From the IMG/VR virus record IMGVR_UViG_3300049793_000366, positions 122,865-186,864 of that record: a DNA stretch of 64,000 nt; one strand, given 5' to 3'. A program made the position numbers and the translations under genes. The DNA comes from a virus. Below are positions 9,524 to 43,342 of this stretch, piece by piece (the first letter of the stretch is position 1; each line of letters begins with the position of its first letter). The notes beneath the pieces are model-generated. The model did not search any database, was not told the origin of the DNA, and was given only the letters and a program-made list of their open reading frames with translations.

Positions 9524-10627
9524 CTAGTACCCAATCTCGTTATCTGGTGCTTGTTCTTTTAAGCCCTTTACAACATCGACAACTCTTGCTGGATTCTTGT
9601 ATGTTTTATTTTTACCTAAGAATTTACTCAATTCATTAGCCTTTTCAACATCCAATTCTTCAAACTGAATGTCTGCTACAATTGAGTTACAATCCATGTA
9701 TTCATTTGTTATATCGTCTGAATCCTCAGTATTTGTTATCAATATGATATGTACATTTAAATGGTCTGATAGTATACCATCAACCAACTGTTTAATATTA
9801 TTGATAGACATACTAAGTCTATAATGTTGATGTTCAGTAAACATATCACAATCATCCAATAATATTATTGAATTATTATTTCTTTCTAAGAAAGTTAGAA
9901 ACTCAGGACTATTGATGGTAGCATCAATCATCACTGATGGTACGTATATTACTTGTTTTTCAACCTGAGTAGTGATATAGCTTGCGAAATTGGTTTTACC
10001 AGTTCCTCTTTCTCCCCATAATACAGTCAGTCCACGAGGTAACTTATTGATTTGTTTAATTAGCTTATTAGCTTGTGTTATAACATCATCATTATAGTAA
10101 TACTCAATGTTCTCTTTATCGGTCTGTGTTTTAAAAGGACTTAGTTCATAACCGTTCGCACCTATTCTTAGGTAGAAGTTTTTCTCTTGTGAACCACTCT
10201 CTGGTGCCAAGATAGCACTATCGAATTTATGTATAAGTTTAGTAAGTTCTTCACTATTAACCTTTGTGTGATTATAGAATACCGTAAAATTTGTTATCAC
10301 TCTTTCATCTTCTTCTGCTGAATCTAATTCAAGGAAAGAAAGATATAAATCATCGCTTAATTTAACGCAATATTTATTATTGAATATAAATCTATCACCA
10401 TCAGGTATAATCTCTGATGTTTTGTTTATATTTTTATCAGTTGATTCAAATTCATCTGTTATAATACCCCATACGGCAGGGGCATCAAATTGAGAGTAAA
10501 ATACCAATTTACTTGGTCGTAAACCAAACTCATGTGTAATAAAGAGGAAATCATTCACGTCAACATCATCCTTTGTGACATTGATGTTTAGATTGTATTC
10601 TTTATTTGTGTTCTGTTGAGACTTCAT
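9524..10627 (-). CDS. P-loop ATPase
   Basis: Walker A LWGERGTGKTNF and Walker B IILLDDCD in the C-terminal half. Stop is TAG then TAA. Confidence 0.65.
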   Translation of the reverse strand: MKSQQNTNKEYNLNINVTKDDVDVNDFLFITHEFGLRPSKLVFYSQFDAPAVWGIITDEFESTDKNINKTSEIIPDGDRFIFNNKYCVKLSDDLYLSFLELDSAEEDERVITNFTVFYNHTKVNSEELTKLIHKFDSAILAPESGSQEKNFYLRIGANGYELSPFKTQTDKENIEYYYNDDVITQANKLIKQINKLPRGLTVLWGERGTGKTNFASYITTQVEKQVIYVPSVMIDATINSPEFLTFLERNNNSIILLDDCDMFTEHQHYRLSMSINNIKQLVDGILSDHLNVHIILITNTEDSDDITNEYMDCNSIVADIQFEELDVEKANELSKFLGKNKTYKNPARVVDVVKGLKEQAPDNEIGY

Positions 10628-14100: not shown

Positions 14101-15484
14101 TTTCAGATTCAGATGCATCAAATTTAGATAGTACAAAAGACCTTGCTTCTGCCTTTCTTGAAGGGAAATCGCTCACTACTTTGTTTCTAACTAACTTATC
14201 AAAATTAGTATCAGGCTTCGCCGCATCTACTTTTAGATTAACGAATTTATGTATGAAGTTTTTATACTCAACGATTTGACTACCTGTGAAATATTTCTCA
14301 TAGTTACCACCTGGATTCTCTGGGTCATCAGGCATATCATCACCATTGTCATCTTTCTTCTTTACTCTCTCCCAAGAACGAGGGTCATTTTCATATTTAG
14401 GTCCAGGATAATTTATACTAGATTCTCTATCACCCCAGTTTGATTTCCACCACCACACTGTTGGTCCCACAAAGCCGAATTGCCCGTACCATTTACCACT
14501 TTGTTCTAACCAAGATGGAGCCGCCATTGGCGAACCGTTAGAGTCAAATACTGCTAATACAATATTTTCAGGAAAGTCTTCTGTTGGATTGTCTTCATCT
14601 AATCCTAAGTCACCGTCTCCTACAACACCATCTAAATCTTCGAGACTTATACCACCTAAAAATTGAACAATATCATGATATGTTGTTTCATAATCTATAC
14701 CGTTTAATTTCTTACCAGTGGAATATACCTCTGATATAGTTTCATACTCCGCTTCATAGCCAGTGGTATCTACTGCACCATTTTGTGTTGATGGTAATTC
14801 GTCATTTAGTGATTCATCACCACCAGTTCCGGTATTGTTAGTGTTATTAGCATTACCAGCAGAGCTTGGAATACCACCCTTGACTTGTAAGTTTGATAAC
14901 TTACTTAATTTCTCTTGTAATAGAGATTTATCATAGTTAATCGCTCTTGGGTTTTTCTTTGGTCTAAGTCCTTTTGGTTTTGCTGGGTTTGTATAATCCA
15001 ATGGCACCGAAAGTCTTGCCGCACAATCTTCTAATTTAGCAAGAATACCAACGAAAATTTTAACAATTTCCATATATGGTTTTTGCGATTCAAATATGGC
15101 TTTAATAGCTGTCTTCTCAAGAGCTTTTAACCCCATGAAGTTATCAGCAGAAGTAAGAGAAATATCTCCTTCTGGTACAGAAATTTTACCGTTTGATTTA
15201 ACGTAAGATTTAGGATCCTTAGCCATCTTAGAGTTACTAACACTTTCGAAAATCTTAAGTGATTCTAAGCTTGGTGGTTTAGCCATACCTCTGGCTACCA
15301 TTTGCTTCTTAAGTGTATCAGCGATTCCAAGTTCACCGTTTGCGAACTTAACCAAATATGAAATATCTGGAATTAATAGAATAGGCTTACTTTTATCCTT
15401 ACCATCTGATGGCGGACCTGTAATTGCTTGTGTAAGCGGTAATGGTATTTTCGGTTGTAACGGTAAGTGAAATTCTATTGGCAT
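11111..15484 (-). CDS. giant virion-associated protein (1457 aa), possibly tape-measure or internal/ejected protein
   Basis: Very long ORF with hydrophobic helical segments near the C-terminus and a poly-Gly linker (GGGNQGGGGGGGS). No catalytic motif recognised. Confidence 0.55.
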   Translation of the reverse strand: MPIEFHLPLQPKIPLPLTQAITGPPSDGKDKSKPILLIPDISYLVKFANGELGIADTLKKQMVARGMAKPPSLESLKIFESVSNSKMAKDPKSYVKSNGKISVPEGDISLTSADNFMGLKALEKTAIKAIFESQKPYMEIVKIFVGILAKLEDCAARLSVPLDYTNPAKPKGLRPKKNPRAINYDKSLLQEKLSKLSNLQVKGGIPSSAGNANNTNNTGTGGDESLNDELPSTQNGAVDTTGYEAEYETISEVYSTGKKLNGIDYETTYHDIVQFLGGISLEDLDGVVGDGDLGLDEDNPTEDFPENIVLAVFDSNGSPMAAPSWLEQSGKWYGQFGFVGPTVWWWKSNWGDRESSINYPGPKYENDPRSWERVKKKDDNGDDMPDDPENPGGNYEKYFTGSQIVEYKNFIHKFVNLKVDAAKPDTNFDKLVRNKVVSDFPSRKAEARSFVLSKFDASESEKQLDAISTGGFLPGIPGNIISQYNLGKVPKQPFMPVEKVIGGKPLLIDPEGDYEMRIIKVDTTFNITYDTLQNTPEKSATILRFVHNSHDISMSDNKPFDITLFEKYKTFPEVATQSSYNVTSVSYDNIGLNFQRNLDYDKTFNIDVWARTAPSDFTQFSFYDGLRFNEIKKIGDNWEYRKYDLTGGSPSAEQDVSGGTYSVAQLSTPLVSGKTVTTIKVGSGSSIGKVITYYFDDGTTTNTKPSTWGTVSANWTVATLNQNNSVTLNNYKLTQGDTVKKTYVTTTLSEVGVPNMNHTANGFTFYTDSNTIVKWQSYKGPISPLMNKRKVVSINNIQTPTITTNISDLPVNAIRVTADIPSGQIIAGNQVTNNFLKVGDPYATSKFAIPSAPSELKTPGYGEPNPFQIFRYPTNEDDLETIYLIEAVLPEANPGEPSTGGGNQGGGGGGGSPMWYKRPHAIGGVKVFLSILSDIMTKLIPKIKQLMDLIKNPASFLFDILTEKLGENFEIFGPEFKKAVKAIPTYVAKIKQADLAGNIKQKEKYIKDLTNKIKSTPASNWIHIHPETGVPKFIWDGSAAVKFLSVVFGIKWELFALFDKKPPLTLIFKLLKDPDVDAFDKFINDNLKDLAGIKEAGTNANNNAQATSINGSQQYSADINGLHYDDVITEWYSTGKFVDGIDYEYTYLSEEIATMVKQADDLINNNPDDPNMAQQALDLYEEAQKKDRGNKLIRDKIDKLRKKFSIYPHPLFNLLLSLITTPLKIIFGIIEYIMNFFKELNPGNLVSKLKEFLSFKWIMEFFDPMNLLALIGIKFDIPKFTGWVKDLKNLPDDYIFDLSEVIDIVFIPKLFKVNKAQFKTLLKQPLYFLNAILCLIEAIINGFIDFVWALLGLAAILKAPHIKLCKKHQDDMTLEEIMQVLSGGMTDTGPESSNIADIDFDKLVLTGDEGENNSLGSNYDFIFEIKTSDGRQLRDLNREELEQWLEDNGGYDFIFNY

Positions 15485-31046: not shown

Positions 31047-32969
31047 ATGCACAGTATCTTAGATTTTATGAGCAATTATTGGTGGATTGGAGCTATTTTA
31101 TTAGCACTGGTTGCCTACAAATTAATTTTCCGTTTATTCGGTATCGTTATGATACCTGAGGATAAAATTGGATTAGTTACAAAGAAGTTTGTTTTACTTG
31201 GCGCGGATAAATCATTACCCGATGGTAGGATTATCGCAACTAAAGGTGAAGCAGGTTTTCAAGCAAAAGCAATGGCACCGGGTATTTATTTCTGGATGTG
31301 GCCATGGCAATATGAAATCGATATGCAAGGTTTCGTATTAATTCCTGAGGGTAAAATTGGTTTAGTGGCTGCGAGAGACGGTGTTGTACCTCAAAATGGT
31401 AGAATACTTGGTCGTAAAGTATCTTGTGATAACTTCCAAGATAGTGAGCAGTTCTTAACTAATGGTGGACAGAAAGGTCGTCAGTCGGCATATCTTGTTG
31501 CTGGTTCTTACCGTATCAATACACACTTATTTGAAGTGTCTGTTGTTGACCAGGTTAAGATTAATGAGAACATGGTGGGTATTGTTACTACTCTTGATGG
31601 TGAGCCTCTTGATGATGGACAAATCGCTGCTAAAGTAAATGAAGCAGGGCATAATAAGTTCCAAAACTTTGATGTGTTTCTTGAGAATGGTGGACAAAGA
31701 GGTTTACAACAAGACGTAATTCTTGCTGGTACTTATAACATCAATCCTTGGGCTGTTCAGATTGAAGAAGTTCCAATGACAAGTATCGCAATTGGATTTG
31801 TTGGTGTTGTTATCTCTTATGTAGGTAGCGAAGGACAAGATGTATCTGGTACTGCTTTCAAACATGGTAACATCGTTAGTAAAGGACAGAAGGGTGTTTG
31901 GAATGAACCATTAGGTCCAGGAAAATATCCTATCAATACATATGCTTATCGCATTGAAGTTGTTCCAACAACAAACCTTGTATTAAACTGGGCAAGCGCG
32001 AGAACTGAATCACACAACTTAGATAAGAACTTAAGTACTATCACAGTACGTTCTAAAGATGGTTTCCCATTCAATTTAGATGTGTCTCAAATTATTCACA
32101 TTCCAATGACAGAAGCACCTAAAGTAATTGCGCGATTTGGTGCTATGCAAAACTTAGTTTCTCAAGTACTTGAGCCAACTATTGGTAACTATTTCCGTAA
32201 CTCTGCTCAAGATTCAGATGTAATCTCTTTCTTAAGCTCTCGTAAAGAGCGTCAGGAGTCTGCTAAACAGCATATCTCTAAAGTTCTTGAAGAGTATAAC
32301 GTTCACGCTGTTGATACGCTTATAGGTGATATTACACCTCCTGAGTCACTTATGAAAACTCTTACTGACCGTAAGATTGCTGAAGAGCAAAAAGTAACAT
32401 ATGAAACTCAGCGTAAAGCACAAATCGAGCGTCAATCTTACGAGAAAGAAAATGCTGTTGCTGATATGCAAAAGGATGTAGTTAAAGCTGACCAGTCAGT
32501 ATTAATTGCTGATAAAACTGCTCAAGCTTCTATTAAGCAAGCAGAAGGTAATGCTAAGTCAGTAGAGCTTAACGCTAATGCTGATGCGAATGCTACTAAA
32601 TTACGTGCTGGTGCCGAAGCAGAAAGAATTACCTTAACTGGTAATGCCGAAGCAGAAAGAACATTAGCGATTGGTAAGTCTAACGCAGAAGCTTATAAAC
32701 TTGCTGTTGAAGCAATGGGTGAAGAAAACTTTACTCGCCTTAAAGTAACAGAAGCTATTGGTATTAATAAAGTACAGGTAATTCCTAACGTACTTATCAA
32801 TGGTGGTGGTAACGGAAGCGGTTCATTAGAAGGTATGATGAGCCTTCAAATGATGGAAATGATGAGCGAAAAGGGTTACTTAAATAAAAAAGACATCAAG
32901 GATGTCAAAGAAGTAACATCTAAAGCTGTTGTTGAAGAGAAAGCAGAAGACGACAAGAAGAAGAAGTAA
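31047..32969 (+). CDS. flotillin-like SPFH/band-7 domain membrane protein
   Basis: N-terminal TM helix WWIGAILLALVAYKLIF. Central SPFH-like region. C-terminal Ala/Glu-rich coiled coil (AEAERITLTGNAEAERTLAIGKSNAEAYKLA) ending in GGGNGSG, as in YqiK/flotillin. Confidence 0.6.
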   Translation: MHSILDFMSNYWWIGAILLALVAYKLIFRLFGIVMIPEDKIGLVTKKFVLLGADKSLPDGRIIATKGEAGFQAKAMAPGIYFWMWPWQYEIDMQGFVLIPEGKIGLVAARDGVVPQNGRILGRKVSCDNFQDSEQFLTNGGQKGRQSAYLVAGSYRINTHLFEVSVVDQVKINENMVGIVTTLDGEPLDDGQIAAKVNEAGHNKFQNFDVFLENGGQRGLQQDVILAGTYNINPWAVQIEEVPMTSIAIGFVGVVISYVGSEGQDVSGTAFKHGNIVSKGQKGVWNEPLGPGKYPINTYAYRIEVVPTTNLVLNWASARTESHNLDKNLSTITVRSKDGFPFNLDVSQIIHIPMTEAPKVIARFGAMQNLVSQVLEPTIGNYFRNSAQDSDVISFLSSRKERQESAKQHISKVLEEYNVHAVDTLIGDITPPESLMKTLTDRKIAEEQKVTYETQRKAQIERQSYEKENAVADMQKDVVKADQSVLIADKTAQASIKQAEGNAKSVELNANADANATKLRAGAEAERITLTGNAEAERTLAIGKSNAEAYKLAVEAMGEENFTRLKVTEAIGINKVQVIPNVLINGGGNGSGSLEGMMSLQMMEMMSEKGYLNKKDIKDVKEVTSKAVVEEKAEDDKKKK

Positions 32970-33404: not shown

Positions 33405-33443
33405 AAAAACCCTCAAGTATTTCTACTGAGGGTTTTAATTTTT
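33403..33443. terminator. bidirectional rho-independent terminator
   Basis: A-run, then CCCTCAAGTATTTCTACTGAGGG hairpin, then a T-run, between convergent genes. Confidence 0.55.
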
Positions 33444-33458
33444 AATCTTAATGGAATT

Positions 33459-34562
33459 TTATCCCATTGTTAAGAAGATTTTTCTGTTTAATCTATCAAC
33501 AGCAAGTACTTTAACTTGGATGTCTTGACCAGCAGAGAATTGTTTGGTGTTACTGAACTTTTCAACTTCTGATGTGTGAATTAAACCGATTGTCTCTTCG
33601 TCAAGGTTAACAAGAACACCAAATGCTTTGTTATCTTTAACTTTACCTTTGAACTTCTGTCCAACTTTGATACCATCCCAAAGTGATTCTTTTAGAATCT
33701 GGGTAAGAATAATCTTATCCTTGATGATTTCTTTTACGTAGAAGTCAACTGCTGTTCCAGCTTGAATTTGGTCAATTTTATCAGCCCATTCAGGATTGAT
33801 GTTTGATTTGTGAATCATACCAGTTAAACATTCGTTGAATTCGACGAACACACCGAATGGAGTAGTTCCAGTTACGTGTCCTGTGTAAACAGACTCAGCA
33901 TCTAACTTCTTAATCTCTTTTGGTATTAAAGATTGTAAGTATTTTTTGCGAGATACTATATACGTTCCTTTCTCGTCTGAAAAAGACTCCACCATAACGT
34001 TGAATGTTTTACCAACAATAACGCTTGGGTCATGTAGCTTGTTAACACCAGCTAAAGTGTTTGGCATGAATGCCGGGATTGTAACACCGTTGTATAGAAT
34101 ATCTAAATCATATCCAGCTGGGTTAAGTTCTTTAACTTTTGCTTCAACGAAGTCAGTAGATTCTAACGATTGTAACCCTAAGTGAATCGCTTGTTCATAA
34201 ATAGCTGAAATGCTACCTTTAATGAAGAATGGATTTTCTTGTTGGTCTGTTACTAACACGTCAATGTATTGACCATGTTTTAAATTTTGAGTATAAGAAA
34301 GTTCTTTCTTATTTGATTCAACACGAAGATAATCTTTATATCCAATATCGAATACTAAATATTCGTTGGTTGTTTCGATAAACTTTGCGTTGGTAATTTC
34401 ACCAGTCTTCGGCAAAACAAATTTGCCCAATTGGTAGAGCTTTAACATTTGCTCTGCATAAGGTTCAGTACAATAAAGTACATAACCGTCTTTTGTTTTT
34501 CTTGGTTTCTTAGACCACTCAAAAACATCTTTAAATTCTGCGTTTCCGTAGGTTTCTGTCAT
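33459..34562 (-). CDS. multi-S1-domain RNA-binding protein (ribosomal protein S1-like)
   Basis: C-terminal canonical S1 fold signature GKVKDNKAFGVLVNLDEETIGLIHTSEV...VKVLAVDRLNRKIFLT. Further S1-like repeats (GHVTGTTPFGVFVEFNECLTGMIHKS; GKTFNVMVESFSDEKGTYIVSRK). Confidence 0.6.
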   Translation of the reverse strand: MTETYGNAEFKDVFEWSKKPRKTKDGYVLYCTEPYAEQMLKLYQLGKFVLPKTGEITNAKFIETTNEYLVFDIGYKDYLRVESNKKELSYTQNLKHGQYIDVLVTDQQENPFFIKGSISAIYEQAIHLGLQSLESTDFVEAKVKELNPAGYDLDILYNGVTIPAFMPNTLAGVNKLHDPSVIVGKTFNVMVESFSDEKGTYIVSRKKYLQSLIPKEIKKLDAESVYTGHVTGTTPFGVFVEFNECLTGMIHKSNINPEWADKIDQIQAGTAVDFYVKEIIKDKIILTQILKESLWDGIKVGQKFKGKVKDNKAFGVLVNLDEETIGLIHTSEVEKFSNTKQFSAGQDIQVKVLAVDRLNRKIFLTMG

Positions 34563-34615
34563 TTATTTAATTTTTAAAAGGTTATAAATGTTATAATGAA
34601 TGTGATGTTGAAAGT

Positions 34616-35017
34616 TTAGAGTTTTTTTATATTATGTTTCATCATGTAGTCTCTTATGCGAACAGCATCTTCATACCTCTCATCGCTAAGAGCCTTTGAT
34701 AGCTTATCATTCAGCTCTTTTTCGAGTTGTTCAATAGATAGTTTATTATTTTTTTCATTAACTATAATTGATTGATAATGTTCATTGATACCAGTGATAT
34801 CATATAAAGTTTGGTTCTCAAATTCTTCTGCTATCTTATCGAGTTCCTTCTGGTCAAGCTCATTCAGCTTGGTGGAACTTAAAATTTTATCCAGGAATTT
34901 TTTATTAAATGAATTATTATCTAATAAAAATTTAGCTAAATGATTGGGTCTATTTCTAAACATCTTTAATAGCAAAACTAAATTTCGATATACTTTATCG
35001 TTTCTGTCTCCGTCCAT
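34616..35017 (-). CDS. hypothetical protein
   Basis: 133 aa ORF. Confidence 0.5.
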   Translation of the reverse strand: MDGDRNDKVYRNLVLLLKMFRNRPNHLAKFLLDNNSFNKKFLDKILSSTKLNELDQKELDKIAEEFENQTLYDITGINEHYQSIIVNEKNNKLSIEQLEKELNDKLSKALSDERYEDAVRIRDYMMKHNIKKL

Positions 35018-35053
35018 AATATTTATATCAAAAATTTATACTTGGTTTACTAC

Positions 35054-35743
35054 TTATGCTCTTTCAAAATATACGTTGTAATAATAACTGAATGTAAACT
35101 CGCTACTCGGTTTCTCTTGTTGGAATCTAAGTGTCAACTTTTTCTTATCATAAGTTATCTCAGATTCCATTTTTTGTAAAACTAATCCTGGGTCTTCTGC
35201 ACCAGCATCATATTGAATTTGAAATCTTCTTATATTCTGTGATTTTAAATCCGTGTATTTAACGAATAACTCTACTGATTTGAATACATATCTTGACCAC
35301 AGATTATATTCGATGTAGTCATTTATAGAAATGTTTACATTATTATTAATGGTCTGATTGTTTGGTATTCCTTCGAAAGTTCTTGCTTCTTTTAATTTAG
35401 CAAAGATGTATTCAAATAGCAATGATTTTAAATCTATATCAATTATCCATTTAGTGAATTTATCCTTATCTGATGGTGATTGTGTTGGATTTAACTGAAT
35501 AACGTGTCTATCCTTTTTAGATATTGGTTCACTATATACAATAGGGTCTAAGGCAGATTCGACTACCGCATCCATCTGTTCGCCATTTGCGTTTTGATAG
35601 TAAATTACGTTACTGTTTTTAATACCAATAACATCTTCAACGTCAACCATTTTAGAACCAAAGAATGAACGTAGCTCAATCATGTTGTAAGTACCGTTTG
35701 TTTCGGTATATGTAAACTCTGGTGATATATAATTTCTTCTCAT
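35054..35743 (-). CDS. hypothetical protein (structural module)
   Basis: 229 aa, immediately downstream of two giant structural ORFs. Confidence 0.5.
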   Translation of the reverse strand: MRRNYISPEFTYTETNGTYNMIELRSFFGSKMVDVEDVIGIKNSNVIYYQNANGEQMDAVVESALDPIVYSEPISKKDRHVIQLNPTQSPSDKDKFTKWIIDIDLKSLLFEYIFAKLKEARTFEGIPNNQTINNNVNISINDYIEYNLWSRYVFKSVELFVKYTDLKSQNIRRFQIQYDAGAEDPGLVLQKMESEITYDKKKLTLRFQQEKPSSEFTFSYYYNVYFERA

Positions 35744-35744
35744 G

Positions 35745-38700
35745 TTATAAACTTTGATTAGTGTTGCTATTTGATTGTGCTATTTGATTGACAACACTTT
35801 TTTGTGTCGGATCAGCTTCATCACATTCTATATAGTATTTATTATCCCATGTGCTTTTGAATATAAAATAGTGTTTGAAGCCATAGCCATATTCATCAAT
35901 CATTGGATAGATAGATTTTAAATCCTTAGCATCCTTTAGTTTAAGTATATTCTTCTTTCTGTTTATTTTTGAGAATTTTCTCTCTTTCATAATACCGAAA
36001 TTAGATAAGCTTGTATCAAATTTGCAATTGTGGTTATCTACCTTATTGAATAGTTCGATATCATAGAATATAGGCATATAATATCCACTGAATCTATATA
36101 GACTCGTAGTTGTTAGATTTTTAAGCCCGTGAATATTATCAACTACTAAATTATCACCTTTGTGTTGGATTATATTTGTAGCTAATGGTATATCATTATA
36201 GTAGTTTAATTCATTAGTAGATTTAACTGTACCTTTGTCTAATAAGAATTTTGCTTTAATTAAATTTTTATTTGGTGATACGGGTTCAACCTTATATGAG
36301 TTCAACTTCGTGGTTACTTGGTCTGGTGCTTCTGCTAATAATATAACAGGTAAATTAGTCCAATTGTATGATTGTGTTGCACCATCGATGTAGTATTTAA
36401 TCGTATCGCTGAATCCATACTTCTCACTCACATTATTCATATAGTTGATGAAGTTATTAGCAGTAAGTTTTGAGAATAATTCATTATATAAATCATCCCT
36501 CTCCTTATTCTTAATAGAAGTATAGGTGTTGTCATTTATGTAGATATGAAGAAGAATTTCCTTATTCTTGTTGTTTATATACATATTGATACCATTCTCT
36601 AATGTTGAGTTAGAAGTAGGTGATGTACAATAGTAATATCTACTATTGAATTTAATAATATTATTATTCGTTATACTATATGGTAGTGTTGTATCATCAA
36701 CCAATGAGTATTCACGAGTCCAAGATGCATTAGTTCCTGGTTCATCAAGATACGAACCAACTAACCTCCATAATATATCATTATGAACAGCGTATTTACC
36801 ATTCAATGCTACAATTGCTGGTGGTGTTATTTTACTCCATAATATTACCTTGTTCCATTTAAGTGTAGATGTCGGTAATGTATTATCTACTCTCCAAGAT
36901 TTAGATGTGAGTGGATAAGAACGGTTTGTCGATTTAAGTGACCTATAATATTCACCATTGAATATAATATATTCATTAGCATTGTAGTTTTGCTTTGGAT
37001 TCCAGAAGCTAACTGTACCAGCACTATATGAATAGTAATCACCGTGGTGATATACTGCGCTATCATAAACCACTGTTGGTGATAATGTATAAGTCTTGGT
37101 TGGATTCCATAATATAGATGTTATACCACTTATAGTTCCCCAAGATACCGTACCATTTGTATATCCAACATCTGTTGTTAATAGTGGTGTGAATAATGAT
37201 TGTGGTCCAACGGTTGTAGTAAGTGTTGAATTATTAAGTGTTGGGCTACCTGGATATACAGACATATTTGTTAGTGTATATGGTGTAGAACCTACGTAGA
37301 CGAATACAATGTCATTAAATATAAACTTCTCACCGAATGTGTATTCTTCTTCTTGATTAAACTGTGAGAATGTTTCCCATGTTAATTCATTCTTTATTGG
37401 AAATACAGACCCAGTTGCCGAATCAGCCATTAGTACGGAGAATTTATATCCTTCGTAATCATTTGTTGATTTAGTTATGATTGAATCAATAGACCCATTT
37501 TTAATAATTAGCTTATCAACATCATATAGATAAAACTTAATACCCTTAAATACTGTGTGATTAGTTATGACTGAATCCTTTGCGTTAAATCTTGAATACT
37601 TTTTAGTATTTCTAATAGTAGAACCACTATCTAATATTTCCTTCTTATCAAATAGAGAAGCGAAATAAGATATCGTACCAGAGTATGTACCTTGATATGC
37701 CCATGTAGCCGCAGTAGCAGCTATTCCAGTGAAGAATAAATCAGGATTAAATGTAAAAGAATCTATGTTTTTATTACTATCTAATATCTGTACGTGTAAA
37801 CTTTGCTCAACATAAGATGTTGTTGATGAATTTATTGTATAGAAATAATCTAAATTATTTTCCATACGTATAGGTCTTGTTTCATATACATTAGCAACCC
37901 TATTAAAGTCATCAGCTATAAATGAATTATTCAAACGATATTCCTCATCAAAATGAGAGTTTGAATGTTGATATCCCCATTTTGTTGACGTGATATTCTT
38001 TCTCCATAGTGAGTTAAGTTCATTATTGTGAACTTCAAATAACTCACCAGTAGCGATGTATTCAGATGATGTTGGTATATGTACTAATTCTTTATTAAAT
38101 ACATACTCACTAAGTCTTTGTGGGTACTCAAGTGAATCTATATCCTTAGAATATAATTTTAATTGTTGTGTATCGGTAAGTGAATCTGATTTTTCATATT
38201 CAAATTTCGAAAAGTTTGTATCAATGATAGATGTTTCAAAATCCTTAATATCAGAAAAGTAAACCTTGTATATTTTAAATACTGGTGGTTGATGGTCTTT
38301 ATCGATAATTAATGGTATAACCGTTTTATAAGCTGGGTCACCCTCGTTTATATAATATTCGAATGTTAATTCAGTAGATTTGAATCCATAATCAGATTGT
38401 ATGTGTAGAGATCCATTACTATCAACTCTTATTACGTGCCATTTATCATCTATCTCAATGACAAATAAATCACAGTTCTTAGCTTCGTTTATAAATTTAT
38501 TATAACTAGCTTGATTATTAACGAAAGTTAGTATGTTGCTTGAATCAACATTTATAATATTAGCATCTATTATACCTTCTAATCCAGATAAATCTAAATC
38601 AGATATAATTCTGTAATTTACAACGTTTAATAGTTGTAATTCATCAGTAGCTAAACCTTTTCTTGACTTAGTTCTTTTGTTTAATCTACGTGTATTTGTG

Positions 38701-39707
38701 AATTTCTCTACCTTATAAAAGATACCATTTATTTCAACATATGTATTCTCTGTCCACCCACCTACGAATGGATCTCCACCCTCTGACTCACTTATTATAT
38801 TACCCGCCGTGATAACTGTACCAGTTACTAATTTCTGAGCTTTATATGGTGACACTGAAAGAAATTCTTCTAATTTTTCAATATAAAATCCGAAGTATCT
38901 GTTTATTGACCATTTTCTTAAAGCCTTTGGTGTAGCTGGTGTATCATTGAATAAGAAACTAAAGTTTACTATATTTGGAAATACAACTTTATTGTTTCTA
39001 TAACCATCTGTGATAAGCGACTCGAATGAATGAAATGTTTGCTCAGTAGATATAGTCTCATCTAAGAAAAAAGACTTAGAACAATATCCACCTGATTCAT
39101 ATTCAATACCATTCCACTTAGAGAATTCTAAAGTTCTCCAATCTATTTCAAATGGTGCTGTTGGAAATGATGCATCGTCAACGAAGTTTCTTTTAATCCA
39201 TTCACCAACATTTGTTTTAGGAGTTAAGTCGAAAACAGTGACACATTTAAACTTATCTAATATCTCTGTCTTGAAATTATCCTTAGTTAAGTTTATAATA
39301 CCAGGACCATCTACTCTGAAAATAATGAAATTTTCCGGAATAGAAGACGGGTCTATATACAAAGGCGCAAAGCATTCAAATTCTTCTTGATAGAATGTAT
39401 CAGAGATATACTTACATCCCATTTGATATATGTCATCAAACTGATGCTCGAACGTGTTAAACATTTTATCGGCATCGTCTTCATATTTAACTTTGAAGGC
39501 AACATCAGCGGGTGTGTTCTTGTAAAAAAACGGAACCAATTCATTAAAGAAGTTATCCTTATTGAATAGTACGTGTTTATATTTAGAAGCACATAGTTCA
39601 GGACTTGATTCAATTGATTCTAAGTATAATGAATAACTTGCTGTTACTATTACTTTAGCATTTGTTGAAAGTGCTGGGTTTGCTCTAATTACCGAAAATG
39701 ATTTCAT
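35745..39707 (-). CDS. giant structural protein (1320 aa), putative tail or baseplate component
   Basis: Very long ORF rich in Asn/Ser/Thr/Tyr, beta-rich. No enzymatic motif recognised. Confidence 0.55.
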   Translation of the reverse strand: MKSFSVIRANPALSTNAKVIVTASYSLYLESIESSPELCASKYKHVLFNKDNFFNELVPFFYKNTPADVAFKVKYEDDADKMFNTFEHQFDDIYQMGCKYISDTFYQEEFECFAPLYIDPSSIPENFIIFRVDGPGIINLTKDNFKTEILDKFKCVTVFDLTPKTNVGEWIKRNFVDDASFPTAPFEIDWRTLEFSKWNGIEYESGGYCSKSFFLDETISTEQTFHSFESLITDGYRNNKVVFPNIVNFSFLFNDTPATPKALRKWSINRYFGFYIEKLEEFLSVSPYKAQKLVTGTVITAGNIISESEGGDPFVGGWTENTYVEINGIFYKVEKFTNTRRLNKRTKSRKGLATDELQLLNVVNYRIISDLDLSGLEGIIDANIINVDSSNILTFVNNQASYNKFINEAKNCDLFVIEIDDKWHVIRVDSNGSLHIQSDYGFKSTELTFEYYINEGDPAYKTVIPLIIDKDHQPPVFKIYKVYFSDIKDFETSIIDTNFSKFEYEKSDSLTDTQQLKLYSKDIDSLEYPQRLSEYVFNKELVHIPTSSEYIATGELFEVHNNELNSLWRKNITSTKWGYQHSNSHFDEEYRLNNSFIADDFNRVANVYETRPIRMENNLDYFYTINSSTTSYVEQSLHVQILDSNKNIDSFTFNPDLFFTGIAATAATWAYQGTYSGTISYFASLFDKKEILDSGSTIRNTKKYSRFNAKDSVITNHTVFKGIKFYLYDVDKLIIKNGSIDSIITKSTNDYEGYKFSVLMADSATGSVFPIKNELTWETFSQFNQEEEYTFGEKFIFNDIVFVYVGSTPYTLTNMSVYPGSPTLNNSTLTTTVGPQSLFTPLLTTDVGYTNGTVSWGTISGITSILWNPTKTYTLSPTVVYDSAVYHHGDYYSYSAGTVSFWNPKQNYNANEYIIFNGEYYRSLKSTNRSYPLTSKSWRVDNTLPTSTLKWNKVILWSKITPPAIVALNGKYAVHNDILWRLVGSYLDEPGTNASWTREYSLVDDTTLPYSITNNNIIKFNSRYYYCTSPTSNSTLENGINMYINNKNKEILLHIYINDNTYTSIKNKERDDLYNELFSKLTANNFINYMNNVSEKYGFSDTIKYYIDGATQSYNWTNLPVILLAEAPDQVTTKLNSYKVEPVSPNKNLIKAKFLLDKGTVKSTNELNYYNDIPLATNIIQHKGDNLVVDNIHGLKNLTTTSLYRFSGYYMPIFYDIELFNKVDNHNCKFDTSLSNFGIMKERKFSKINRKKNILKLKDAKDLKSIYPMIDEYGYGFKHYFIFKSTWDNKYYIECDEADPTQKSVVNQIAQSNSNTNQSL

Positions 39708-39710
39708 TTA

Positions 39711-42700
39711 TTATAATGATATGTTTTGTCCTGTTGGTAGGTTCGAAAGATTCTTTTGAACAGCTACTTTATTTCTACTTAAATTGAACTTAATTGTAAA
39801 CGTGAATGGTCTATTTTCAGCTTCATTTTCTAAGAAGAACTTTAACTTTTTAATATGTTTAACTGTTTGTGTAACGTTATTTAATACGATATACTTGTAG
39901 TTATTACCAGTTCCAGCATTCGGATCCAATGAATTCATCTTGAAATAGATATTGATTGGAATATTGATTGCGTTATTAGGACCACCTGGTACTGTGTGTA
40001 CTTTATCTGAATTAGTTTCAACTAATTTATCTAAGTCTTGAACTACTGGATGAATTGTTGTTAGTAATTTAGTTGTACTTGATACTGACACTGAATTCTC
40101 AACCCATTTACTTGTTTCAAGTAATGATGTATTTGAATTATTAAATGATAGTAAAGTAGTTTCAGAATAACCAATATTATATTCAGTAGATGCTAATGCT
40201 GGTACAATTGAATTGTTAGCATTTGTAGTAAATGCATTTCCAATATTATCAGCCAATTTAGTAACTGTTGATGTATCTTCGATTGTAGAGTAATTAACTG
40301 ACCAAGCAAACTGATTGTTCTTCTGTGTTAATGTTTTACCAGTTGTATTTGAAAACAATAGCTGATTTAATTCATTTACCCAGAAGATTTGAGGAGCCGC
40401 TGTGTTATATAACTCAGTACTTGTATTGTATATTCTACTTGATAATAATCCAAGTGGTGATTCAACTGATTTATTCTCAATCTTTAATAGGAAATCTTTA
40501 ATTACATAAATGTTGTTTTGATAAACACGTCCTGTTGGTACACCAGTATCACTGAATGTATCTAAGTAGTCTTCACACTCAACGTTGAATGTTATTTCAG
40601 AGTTATTCTTGATAACAAATGGTTGGTTATTTCTAAACATAGTTATTACAAGCTCACCCTTAGCACGTTTAATCTTCTCTTCTAAAGCGATTACTCTGTC
40701 TTGAAGAGATTTTAAATATCCGTGTAAGTCAATAGCAGTACCGTTATCATCTTTGAAACCAGATAAAATACTATCAGAACTTGTTACATATGTTTTATTT
40801 CCAACAACAGTGATACCATCTAATATTGTTGATAAACCTCTCGCATCAAGCTCAGATTGCATTCTAACTTTAAGCTCTTCTTGTGTAGCTTCTTTTAAAA
40901 TGAATTGGTCATCAGCCATAACATCATTTAAATCATCTGGGAAATCCAGTGATATGATTTGTGACCAATCAGATTCTACCGGAGATTCTGGCCAACCAAC
41001 TTCTGAAATTGATTTAATTCTTATTTCAACTCTTTCATTTGGTGAAATAGGAATATCTAACTGATTGATATTTGGAGTATCAGCATCAGAAACATCCTCT
41101 ATTGTCCATGAGTATTGTTTAGTTTTAGGATCCTGAATTCTTTTTCTAGCATCCGTTTTAATTTCTTTCCAATTTGAAAAGGCACCAGTTTTAATATTCT
41201 CACCATTTTTTACTGGCTTAAGTTTGAATGTTGTAGTAGTTGGCTCCTTACCATCTTTTGTTGTGTATTTATATTGTATTCTAAACTGAACAATTTCTTG
41301 AGGCTTAGTACCACGAGTTATAATTGCATCAGGAATAGTCCAGAATCCTCTTATGGAGAACTTCGGAGATTGCTTGCCTATACTTGTAGTCTTAGATATA
41401 TCTAATATATCCTTTACTAACGATGATTGTAAAGAAAGCTTTGATTCCTTTTGCTTTTGTAATTTATCTACTTCTAATTCGAATTGTTTTCTTTGTGCAT
41501 CAGATGTGAATCGAGTAACCTTTATTTGCTTATTCTTAGCAATTAATGAATCCGAAATTTGTTGAATTTCAGACTTTAAGTTTTTCTGTTCATTGTGCTT
41601 TGTCTTAATTAGATTACCATTTGGTGTATCTGTTAAGTGTTTATTTATTTGAACTACTTTAAAGTTATCAGCATTTAATGTTGGTGCTGGTGGCGTACCC
41701 GCTAATTGATTTGGTATCTTCTTAGCAACTAAGTCTTTTAATACTTCACCATAGTCATATACATTTTCAGTATAGAATTGTTCCATTGACTTACCATTGT
41801 TTGGGTCTTCTGAATTCAATCTAAGGTCATTAGTCCAATATCCAGTACCAAGACTCCAATCCTTAGCCAATAAGTGATTATCAGCATTTAGTGGCTTAAC
41901 GAAAACCACATTTCTCTCATCATATCCTACTGATATTTTAACGTTTTTATTAAAAACAACAGGTGAATATACTTTAAGCGTACCGATACCTACTGCAATC
42001 GGTTGTAAACCTTCAACTCTTTCAAATCTAACTCTGAAATTAGAAGCAAGTGTTGATACTTCAACCACTTTATATCTTGTTGTAGATATGTCTACATTAA
42101 CGATAACTTCGTCACCGTGTGCTAATTGTCTGATTTCATTTGTACCAGTAACTAAGTAGTCAATAGTATCTAAGTGATACCATAACTTTCTATTAAGTGT
42201 ATCTTGTTCTACTTTTATAACAGTGAATAAACCGTTGTATAATAATTCATTTGGGTCTAAGTCGAAGATTTGCTCATCGTAATTAGGTTCATTTGGACTT
42301 GTGATACCAGGTGTTGTTCTGTGCCAACGGTCAAACTCGTCTATTTTAATAGCAGTCTGCCCTCTGAATAATGTATTGAATGAATTTAAAGCAGATTGTC
42401 CTAAGTTGGTAAGATTACCCGCGTCATCCTTAGCGAATTCAACAATATATCTTCTAACTTGACACTTTCTAACATTATTTTCTATTTTACCATTTAAATC
42501 AATGATTATATTTAGCATTGGGTTTAGTAAACCATCAAAAATCCAGTTTTTGTTGGTAACAAAGGAACTTACTACGTTTAGTGAACCGATAGTAGCAGGC
42601 TCTCGGTTTAAATCAGCAGTAATTATCTTCTTAAATTTATTATTAGCTGGTTGTATAATAGATCCAGCAGAATCGATAGAATATAGGGTATTGATATTGT

Positions 42701-42911
42701 TGTTTAATCTATCAATTTCGGACTTTAAAAATCCAATGGTTGGTAGGTTAAATTGTCTCAAAACGCCATTCTCATCAGTTATTTTTACACTGATTGAGTT
42801 TTCTGTTGTTGTTACTAAATCGTTTAGTTTAGATAGTAATTCTACCGCATTGCGGTTATAACTTATGATTTGTTCTGCTACGGTTGTAAAGGAATTTCTT
42901 ATTGTTGACAT
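39711..42911 (-). CDS. giant structural protein (1066 aa), putative tail or baseplate component
   Basis: Very long ORF with a central coiled-coil segment (QKQKESKLSLQSSLVKD). No enzymatic motif recognised. Confidence 0.55.
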   Translation of the reverse strand: MSTIRNSFTTVAEQIISYNRNAVELLSKLNDLVTTTENSISVKITDENGVLRQFNLPTIGFLKSEIDRLNNNINTLYSIDSAGSIIQPANNKFKKIITADLNREPATIGSLNVVSSFVTNKNWIFDGLLNPMLNIIIDLNGKIENNVRKCQVRRYIVEFAKDDAGNLTNLGQSALNSFNTLFRGQTAIKIDEFDRWHRTTPGITSPNEPNYDEQIFDLDPNELLYNGLFTVIKVEQDTLNRKLWYHLDTIDYLVTGTNEIRQLAHGDEVIVNVDISTTRYKVVEVSTLASNFRVRFERVEGLQPIAVGIGTLKVYSPVVFNKNVKISVGYDERNVVFVKPLNADNHLLAKDWSLGTGYWTNDLRLNSEDPNNGKSMEQFYTENVYDYGEVLKDLVAKKIPNQLAGTPPAPTLNADNFKVVQINKHLTDTPNGNLIKTKHNEQKNLKSEIQQISDSLIAKNKQIKVTRFTSDAQRKQFELEVDKLQKQKESKLSLQSSLVKDILDISKTTSIGKQSPKFSIRGFWTIPDAIITRGTKPQEIVQFRIQYKYTTKDGKEPTTTTFKLKPVKNGENIKTGAFSNWKEIKTDARKRIQDPKTKQYSWTIEDVSDADTPNINQLDIPISPNERVEIRIKSISEVGWPESPVESDWSQIISLDFPDDLNDVMADDQFILKEATQEELKVRMQSELDARGLSTILDGITVVGNKTYVTSSDSILSGFKDDNGTAIDLHGYLKSLQDRVIALEEKIKRAKGELVITMFRNNQPFVIKNNSEITFNVECEDYLDTFSDTGVPTGRVYQNNIYVIKDFLLKIENKSVESPLGLLSSRIYNTSTELYNTAAPQIFWVNELNQLLFSNTTGKTLTQKNNQFAWSVNYSTIEDTSTVTKLADNIGNAFTTNANNSIVPALASTEYNIGYSETTLLSFNNSNTSLLETSKWVENSVSVSSTTKLLTTIHPVVQDLDKLVETNSDKVHTVPGGPNNAINIPINIYFKMNSLDPNAGTGNNYKYIVLNNVTQTVKHIKKLKFFLENEAENRPFTFTIKFNLSRNKVAVQKNLSNLPTGQNISL

Positions 42912-43024: not shown

Positions 43025-43342
43025 ATGGACAAATCTTGGTCATTAAAGAATAAGCGTGATATTGAAAATTTATTCAGTAAGGGTAAATCATATACATCTG
43101 GTTGCATTGTAGCCAGATATGTGGACTCGACTGAAACTAAGTTTCTATTCGCTGTTAGTACCCGTCTGTATAAGCGCGCCAATAAGAGAAATAGAGTTAA
43201 GAGGTTGATGCGTGTTGCTGTTGCTGAGATAAAGAATACGGTAGTCAACAAACACGTTGCTTTTATCTATATAGATACTGATATTAAATCATTAAGTGAT
43301 ATAAAAAATAGCATAGCTGGTCTTAAATGTCTGAACCCTTAG
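43025..43342 (+). CDS. rnpA: ribonuclease P protein component (RnpA)
   Basis: RNR motif region VSTRLYKRANKRNRVKRLMRVAV (A-x-x-RNR-h-KR). N-terminal SLKNKRDIENLFSKGKS is colinear with Bacteroidetes RnpA. About 105 aa from the internal Met; the 5' extension of the track ORF (42902) overlaps the upstream gene. Ends in TAG. Confidence 0.7.
   Translation: MDKSWSLKNKRDIENLFSKGKSYTSGCIVARYVDSTETKFLFAVSTRLYKRANKRNRVKRLMRVAVAEIKNTVVNKHVAFIYIDTDIKSLSDIKNSIAGLKCLNP

Follow-up and report, generated by a model that had tools for sequence, protein, structure and literature searches.

A four-domain bS1 protein of a huge phage keeps ribosome-docking residues and probably steers host ribosomes

The viral DNA analysed here is a stretch of 64,000 nucleotides (the window; positions 122,865 to 186,864 of IMG/VR record IMGVR_UViG_3300049793_000366) and carries on its minus strand a gene for a protein of 367 amino acids (aa) with multiple S1 domains. 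A sequence-only reading had proposed a phage paralogue of ribosomal protein S1. The protein is indeed a true paralogue of bacterial S1 (bS1) rather than a generic S1-domain protein, as its first two domains match bS1 domains OB1 and OB2 specifically. The residues with which S1 docks on the ribosome are kept, and the phage therefore probably steers host ribosomes. In the explanation we favour, which we hold to be somewhat more likely than not, the phage bS1 consists of an N-terminal anchor segment and domains 1–4, and would dock on the host 30S subunit and recruit phage mRNAs that lack a Shine-Dalgarno (SD) sequence. The gene and the parts of its product are as follows.

33459..34562, minus strand: complete gene for the bS1-like protein; ATG start, 367 aa, TAA stop.
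34422..34562, minus strand: N-terminal segment, residues 1–47, aligned by global hhalign with the uS8- and uS2-contacting helix-loop-helix of Bacteroidota bS1.
34428..34457, minus strand: putative equivalent of the uS2-stacking helix, residues 36–45, with Met39 and Tyr43; from the alignment and the model helix at 36–44.
34203..34421, minus strand: domain 1 (D1), OB1 type, residues 48–120, with an IGYKD loop that carries Lys76.
33939..34166, minus strand: domain 2 (D2), OB2 type, residues 133–208; under stronger constraint than any other part, with the family-invariant FMPNTLAGxNKL.
33693..33908, minus strand: domain 3 (D3), residues 219–290; an S1 domain of the canonical RNA-binding type (OB3/4/5 class), with invariant F236, F239 and H251.
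33462..33677, minus strand: domain 4 (D4), residues 296–367; a textbook S1 domain and the best Pfam S1 match, with invariant F314, H329, D356 and R360.

Metagenome contigs yielded 72 bacterial rpsA genes, of which we aligned 47, encoding proteins of 580–640 aa; the profile of these Bacteroidota-type bS1 sequences was compared with that of 235 aligned members of the phage family. The two profiles align end to end on the phage side, with residues 1–367 matching positions 1–369 of 598 (hhalign probability 100%, E=1.4e-56). Against the NCBIfam bS1 models there is one colinear stretch (residues 38–366 to positions 32–373 of 580), which in one of the models extends back to residue 8. The top match among solved structures is 9zcd_A, a Flavobacterium-type bS1 of 591 aa, where residues 48–364 pair with chain positions 43–369, the segment that corresponds to E. 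coli OB1–OB4. Foldseek ranks ribosome-bound bS1 chains at the top of its matches (9gut_B, E=2.7e-21). At 367 aa the phage protein is shorter than bacterial S1, as had been pointed out from the sequence: the 47 Bacteroidota-type proteins span 580–640 aa and E. coli bS1 has 557 aa.

A structural model of the protein was built with AlphaFold2 from 84 family sequences (mean predicted local distance difference test score, pLDDT, 79). It contains four OB folds, at residues 56–117, 139–204, 226–287 and 303–366, each with the strand and helix order b1-b2-b3-helix-b4-b5, as well as a helix at residues 36–44; residues 1–20 have pLDDT values below 60. The sequence-only reading had put the number of S1 repeats at three or more, which was right about there being several S1 domains but undercounted them, and it had described a textbook S1 motif at the C-terminus, which is present at residues 303–366. 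The Pfam S1 model (PF00575), suggested at that stage as the means of parsing the domains, is significant over the whole protein (E=4.9e-22) and resolves just two of the four. Only two stretches pass individually, the better of them at residues 299–366, so that the Pfam parse is an undercount.

Each phage domain was then scored against the separate domains of bS1 in a profile domain matrix. D1 scores 62.8 against OB1 and 37.7 against the next-best domain; for D2, OB2 comes first with 76.5 and the runner-up has 41.6. The assignments of D3 (OB5 66.5, OB4 52.9, OB3 48.3) and D4 (OB4 81.7, OB5 79.1) are to be read as a class, OB3/4/5, since in a control matrix of bacterial sequences these three domains also resemble one another. 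The protein thus combines the bS1-specific, ribosome-binding half of S1 with two canonical RNA-binding domains.

Other S1-containing proteins fit less well. Models for the single-domain S1 regulators (CvfD/GSP13/YabR) and for the S1 domains of RNases and PNPase cover residues 298–366 only; as the Pfam scan found no catalytic domain in the phage protein and there are three further OB domains, it is not a protein of either kind. The Firmicutes-type four-domain S1 model (PRK06676) gives 84.3 bits against its cut-off of 368, and long-form bS1 models score higher. Searches of PHROGs and PADLOC-style viral libraries returned nothing useful, the only PHROGs hit being a marginal ‘nuclease’ match over the last domain.

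Which residues would make the contact with the ribosome is suggested by structural work on E. coli bS1. There, two phenylalanines of the N-terminal helix, Phe5 and Phe9, stack on uS2 Phe32, Lys43 inserts into an acidic pocket of uS2, Phe79 stacks on uS2 His18, and OB2 carries a patch made up of Lys117, Phe120 and Phe130 (PMC10123108). The alignment places the Bacteroidota and phage equivalents as follows.

E. coli Phe5: Leu/Met/Ile in Bacteroidota; Met39 in the phage protein (Leu/Met in the family).
E. coli Phe9: Tyr in 91% of Bacteroidota; Tyr43 in the phage protein, in 76% of 235 family members.
E. coli Lys43: Lys in 100% of Bacteroidota; Lys76 in the phage protein, 85%, within a common IGYK[SD]D loop.
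E. coli Phe130: Phe in 100% of Bacteroidota; Phe165 in the phage protein, 98%.
E. coli Phe120: Met/Leu in Bacteroidota; Tyr151 in the phage protein, 85%.
E. coli Lys117: Lys in 100% of Bacteroidota; Pro148 in the phage protein, not conserved.
E. coli Phe79: Lys in 55% of Bacteroidota, not conserved; Pro/Asn in the phage family, not conserved.

Judged from these alignments, the uS2 anchor, that is the helix tyrosine and the loop lysine, is kept in the phage protein. In Flavobacterium johnsoniae bS1, residues 4–40 form a helix-loop-helix that is stably bound to both uS2 and uS8, the uS8 contact being made by the aromatic helix FLANFNWHNF (PMC13000457). The N-terminus of the phage family has a two-part layout like that of Bacteroidia bS1, and the second helix, AEQMLKLYQ (residues 36–44), matches well. 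The first element, AEFKDVFEWS (residues 8–17), holds the sequence FKDVFEWS, and across the family this region has a hydrophobic-aromatic-acidic core in which position 14 is aromatic in 83% of members. The window protein (FEW) and its counterpart in Lak-A2 (FNWTPYEDG) come nearest to the bacterial first-helix motif; the Bacteroidia-type first helix, with its uS8 contact, appears to be only partly kept. When aligned on its own, the N-terminal segment scores 14.9, above all 150 column shuffles (mean 5.5, maximum 9.3).

Several observations weigh against a bS1 that docks on the ribosome in the manner of the bacterial protein. At the N-terminus, the segment alone reaches an hhalign probability of just 27% and has low pLDDT values, and the Bacteroidota F-[DN]-W motif, both aromatics of which are found in 98% of the bacterial sequences, is reduced to one aromatic in most members. 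In D2, the replacement of the invariant lysine at the E. coli Lys117 position by the non-conserved Pro148 belongs here, as does an OB2 loop motif unlike the bacterial one. The whole protein scores 120 bits where the curated NCBIfam bS1 cut-off is 524, and 105 where that of TIGR00717 is 577; the six-domain layout of Proteobacteria and Bacteroidota is also absent, there being four domains and no OB5 or OB6. A single-sequence search of the Protein Data Bank (PDB) with residues 1–132 alone found no S1 chain, so that D1 could be recognised only with profile and structure methods. Finally, the hidden Markov model (HMM) of the family shows no special affinity for Bacteroidota bS1, and its scores do not single out a donor phylum (245 bits for Bacteroidota, 256 for E. 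coli and 253 for Verrucomicrobia).

With these points taken into account, docking of the phage S1 on the ribosome remains plausible and can be specified to the level of residues. During infection, the phage protein would take the bS1 site on the host 30S subunit, docking on uS2 through its second N-terminal helix (Met39 and Tyr43) and the D1 loop lysine, Lys76; the first, acidic and aromatic helix may touch uS8 too, as in Bacteroidia. D3 and D4 would then bind the leaders of phage mRNAs, which are A-rich, unstructured and SD-less, and pass these leaders to the decoding channel. Host bS1 would in this way be supplemented or replaced and initiation biased towards phage messages. We infer the binding to the ribosome, and any change in mRNA selectivity, from the conserved residues and domain types. 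Domains 1–3 of E. coli S1 are the smallest version that still binds the 30S subunit, docks mRNA and unfolds RNA (PMC3858243), and because these three domains suffice, D1–D4 of the phage protein and the three domains of its Lak phage counterpart can be functionally complete.

We give much less credence to a more far-reaching form of the proposal, in which the phage S1 is a virus-owned initiation subunit: a uS2/uS8 anchor would hold it on a Bacteroidia-type 30S subunit, and the FMPNTLAGxNKL surface together with the reduced RNA-binding arm of two domains, without OB5 and OB6, would alter mRNA preference, giving virus-programmed ribosomes. If a virus does supply its own bS1, it would gain control of the component by which the host ribosome chiefly selects mRNAs. 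The domain types and the kept tyrosine and lysine define the residues to mutate and the complex to seek.

The same conserved features can be read in a different way. The protein might work off the ribosome, either as a free cytoplasmic RNA chaperone that melts or protects phage RNAs, or by assisting a phage enzyme (a nuclease, a polymerase or one that processes RNA) in the way that host S1 assists T4 RegB and Q-beta replicase; we consider this possible but doubtful. In D3 and D4, both of them S1 domains of the canonical RNA-binding kind, aromatic, His and Arg positions are invariant, and extraribosomal roles of host bS1 with phages are documented (PMC13157829). Q-beta replicase holds S1 via OB1–OB2, and structures of that complex (4q7j and 4r71) are among the fold matches of the phage protein; conservation of D1 and D2 therefore need not mean ribosome binding. 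The phage-specific invariant motif in D2 could bind a phage partner, and a gene for an RNase P protein lies ∼8.5 kb from the S1 gene. However, the kept helix and D1-loop residues are exactly those that contact uS2, which a free chaperone would have no reason to keep, and no nuclease or polymerase gene is consistently adjacent, the block of neighbouring genes being clade-specific.

A second reading accepts the docking of the phage S1 and denies it a role in initiation. As a dominant-negative blocker, the protein would displace host bS1 at uS2 and fail on host mRNAs, shutting off host translation. The conserved anchor residues, the missing OB5–OB6 and the altered OB2 (Lys117 to Pro148) would all suit such a protein, and in E. 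coli the overexpression of N-terminal fragments of S1 inhibits the translation of canonical mRNAs. Two intact RNA-binding domains under strong purifying selection would nevertheless be superfluous in a simple blocker, and E. coli domains 1–3 keep full initiation activity (PMC3858243). Moreover, phage mRNAs are SD-less and A-rich like those of the host, so that S1 function would be needed by the phage too. We regard the blocker as improbable.

Recruitment of SD-less messages, as the favoured explanation has it, presupposes phage genes that lack SD sequences. Of the 72 genes in the window, only 2 show an SD core between −22 and −4, where random 19-mers would give 4.2 ± 1.8; gene leaders are G-poor with 45–60% A, compared with 33% genome-wide. 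The SD-less setting assumed by the sequence-only reading is thus borne out for the phage genes themselves. Bacteroidia ribosomes disregard SD sequences, and F. johnsoniae bS1 boosts initiation on SD-less mRNAs. A scan for sigma-70 promoters found fewer sites in the phage DNA than in shuffled sequence, and TAnnTTTG near gene starts was not clearly enriched (10 observed, about 7 expected). A Bacteroidetes host is plausible on indirect grounds: the relatives in Lak phages of Prevotella, a neighbouring gene in common with Flavobacteriia phages and the A-rich, SD-less leaders.

The family to which the protein belongs is large and viral. At 90% identity the homologues form more than 120 clusters (340–407 aa), and at 50% identity there are 128 representatives (E below 1e-30), where nearly all full-length members have 345–420 aa. 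The window protein is a new sequence with respect to these clusters, the nearest being 93% identical; an identical protein is encoded by two contigs, one of 185 kb and one from the 0.2–1 Mb bin. Members are labelled ‘ribosomal protein S1’ by NCBI and JGI. Within the sampled genomes, the S1 gene is characteristic of those of 460 kb and larger, and no S1 match was found in cultured Flavobacteriia phages of 170–235 kb, though these share the gene for the 1066-aa protein encoded beside S1 in the window.

The possibility that the gene is bacterial and lies on a mis-assembled or mis-binned contig, or is the decaying remnant of a captured host gene, is effectively refuted. It could appeal to a search of ∼185,000 species genomes, whose only four matches, all on contigs of metagenome bins, lie in bins with bacterial labels. 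Against it, family members sit on phage contigs of 164–709 kb with conserved phage neighbours, which also upholds the earlier assignment of the element to a phage, in this case a huge one, and complete, curated genomes of huge phages have homologues too (LR756500–504 and LR745206, with a three-domain variant in Lak phages). No ordinary bacterial bS1 of 550–600 aa is present among the top 150 representatives. The open reading frame (ORF) is intact and of conserved length, and the ratio of nonsynonymous to synonymous substitution rates (dN/dS), taken against a relative with 89% identity, is 0.049 for the whole protein and 0.010 for D2; as dS is near saturation, these ratios are approximate.

Three features immediately around the S1 gene recur in related contigs.

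33406..33436, no strand assigned: hairpin between convergent genes, flanked by an A-run and a T-run; likely a bidirectional intrinsic terminator.
34567..34583, minus strand: leader motif AACCTTTTAAAAATTAA, directly 5′ of the S1 ATG; common to L003 and the 53%-identical L088.
34616..42911, minus strand: four co-oriented genes 5′ of S1, for proteins of 1066, 1320, 229 and 133 aa; a clade-conserved block.

The hairpin sits in a 54-nt gap beyond which the convergent gene begins, and the 93-nt stretch that includes it folds with about −21.6 kcal/mol. An equivalent hairpin and T-run are found 3′ of the S1 gene in four related contigs (L003, L088, L089 and L090). On the other side of the gene, the 5′ DNA is A/T-rich and lacks an SD sequence. 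The AACCTTTTAAAAATTAA motif occurs once in the window, and a search of Rfam around the S1 gene, this leader included, gave no significant match; speculatively, the leader might serve to regulate this one gene, perhaps as an operator for autoregulation. The window was also searched for a second S1 gene and for a bS21 gene, and neither was found. Another ORF of 367 aa (9524–10627) is unrelated to S1 and by eye resembles a P-loop ATPase. Stop-codon recoding is known from Lak phages, and was considered as the cause of the short ORF and of the partial match to Lak. It was rejected: the S1 gene ends in TAA followed by the terminator, the window is 87% coding with the standard code and has no tRNA genes, and the Lak S1 homologue is itself an intact standard-code ORF.

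S1 is the last gene of a block of five (encoding ∼1060, ∼1300, ∼230 and ∼130 aa, then S1), which is kept in the same four contigs, where S1 identity goes as low as 53%. In LR756501, LR756504 and Lak, S1 is not linked to these genes. A UVR motif is present in the 133-aa protein (21.9 bits, just above the cut-off of 21.5), and phrog_29329, a group of unknown function, is matched by the 1066-aa protein; homologues of the 1066-aa protein are encoded by Tenacibaculum, Chryseobacterium and Flavobacterium jumbo phages and by Sphingomonas phage PAU (gp264). We considered the block as a functional operon that would account for S1. Since the linkage is clade-specific and lost in some relatives, and the partners have no recognisable function, the block does not explain S1. 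The S1 protein may be expressed late with the upstream giant-protein block, or packaged with its products.

Further genes of the region were noted in passing. The RNase P protein component gene (43025–43342, plus strand; 105 aa) is identified by PF00825 (E=9.1e-14; 51.9 bits, where 22.3 is the cut-off), has a Bacteroidetes-type TATATTTG motif 13 nt 5′ of it and is kept in the 709-kb relative (L003 1276–1596); it is a further phage-encoded host RNA-processing function. On the 254-kb contig L089, a 154-aa ORF seven genes from S1 (14816–15280, minus strand) gives a weak Ribosomal_L12 match, and on the 164-kb contig L090 a class-I Glu/Gln-type tRNA synthetase (PF00749 and PF19269; 10247–11863, minus strand) lies four genes from S1. 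At 31047–32969 (plus strand) the window encodes a flotillin-like protein of the Band_7/SPFH kind, 640 aa long and with a hydrophobic segment near its N-terminus, which also adjoins the S1 region in L003 and L089. Between 23400 and 30100 there is a cluster of small genes for nucleotide metabolism, identified with Pfam (a CoaE-like kinase, HD_4, an AAA_33 kinase, an NT5C 5′-nucleotidase and DUF6915), which is syntenic in L003.

Phage-encoded bS1 has also been described in the Microcystis jumbo phage PhiMa05, where it is likewise proposed to replace the host protein; its authors infer an origin from a Vampirovibrio-like host, and the gene clusters near other ribosomal protein genes (PMC13157829). 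No PhiMa05 record is among the homologue-search matches that gave LR756502, LR745206 and Lak, which places it outside the megaphage S1 family. The S1-like protein of the Lak megaphages of Prevotella has homologous D2–D3 (∼39% identity) and the same N-terminal layout, and is colinear with bS1 from OB1 into OB3. It differs in having three OB domains, the first of them with an insertion; where D4 would follow, it has an acidic C-terminal tail. In Lak-A2 (L091, MK250019.1, ∼928–2046 of the locus) it has 369 aa, read with the standard code to a TAA stop, and its FNWTPYEDG is close to FNWDAYENG of Bacteroidota bS1.

Compared with Bacteroidia bS1 (F. johnsoniae type, 9zcd_A, ∼590 aa, six OB domains), the phage protein shares a colinear N-terminus and OB1–OB4 and lacks OB5, OB6 and the C-terminal tail. 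Identity at the profile level is ∼24%, F-x-W is degenerate in most family members and the OB2 loops differ. In its extent, the phage S1 is a natural analogue, with one domain more, of the minimal S1 made up of E. coli domains 1–3 (Duval et al. 2013, PMC3858243). That protein is an engineered truncation of a cellular one, whereas the short form of the phage is a conserved, native viral state.

The nearest precedent lies in the huge phages themselves. Al-Shayeb et al. (2020) reported a ‘possible rpS1’ in such genomes, proposed that it serves in ribosome hijacking, observed that the phages that have it rarely have SD sequences, and cautioned that a true rpS1 is hard to confirm (PMC7162821). The possible rpS1 proteins of LR756502, LR745206, LR756501/3, LR756504 and LR756500 belong to the same family as the window protein, with 32–54% identity over 85–100% of the length; LR756502 and LR745206 are the closest (54% over the full length), and in LR756502 and LR756504 the genes at the matching coordinates bear the annotation ‘RNA binding S1 domain protein’. 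Given that hypothesis and these annotated homologues, the S1 protein described here is of an already reported kind, and the idea that it redirects ribosomes is not new and agrees with the proposal of 2020. The earlier work treats huge-phage rpS1 generically, with neither a domain-by-domain assignment nor an analysis of anchor residues (PMC7162821). What is added here is evidence at the level of domains and residues, drawn from sequence and model comparison, which points to a genuine bS1 derivative with its uS2 anchor apparently intact.

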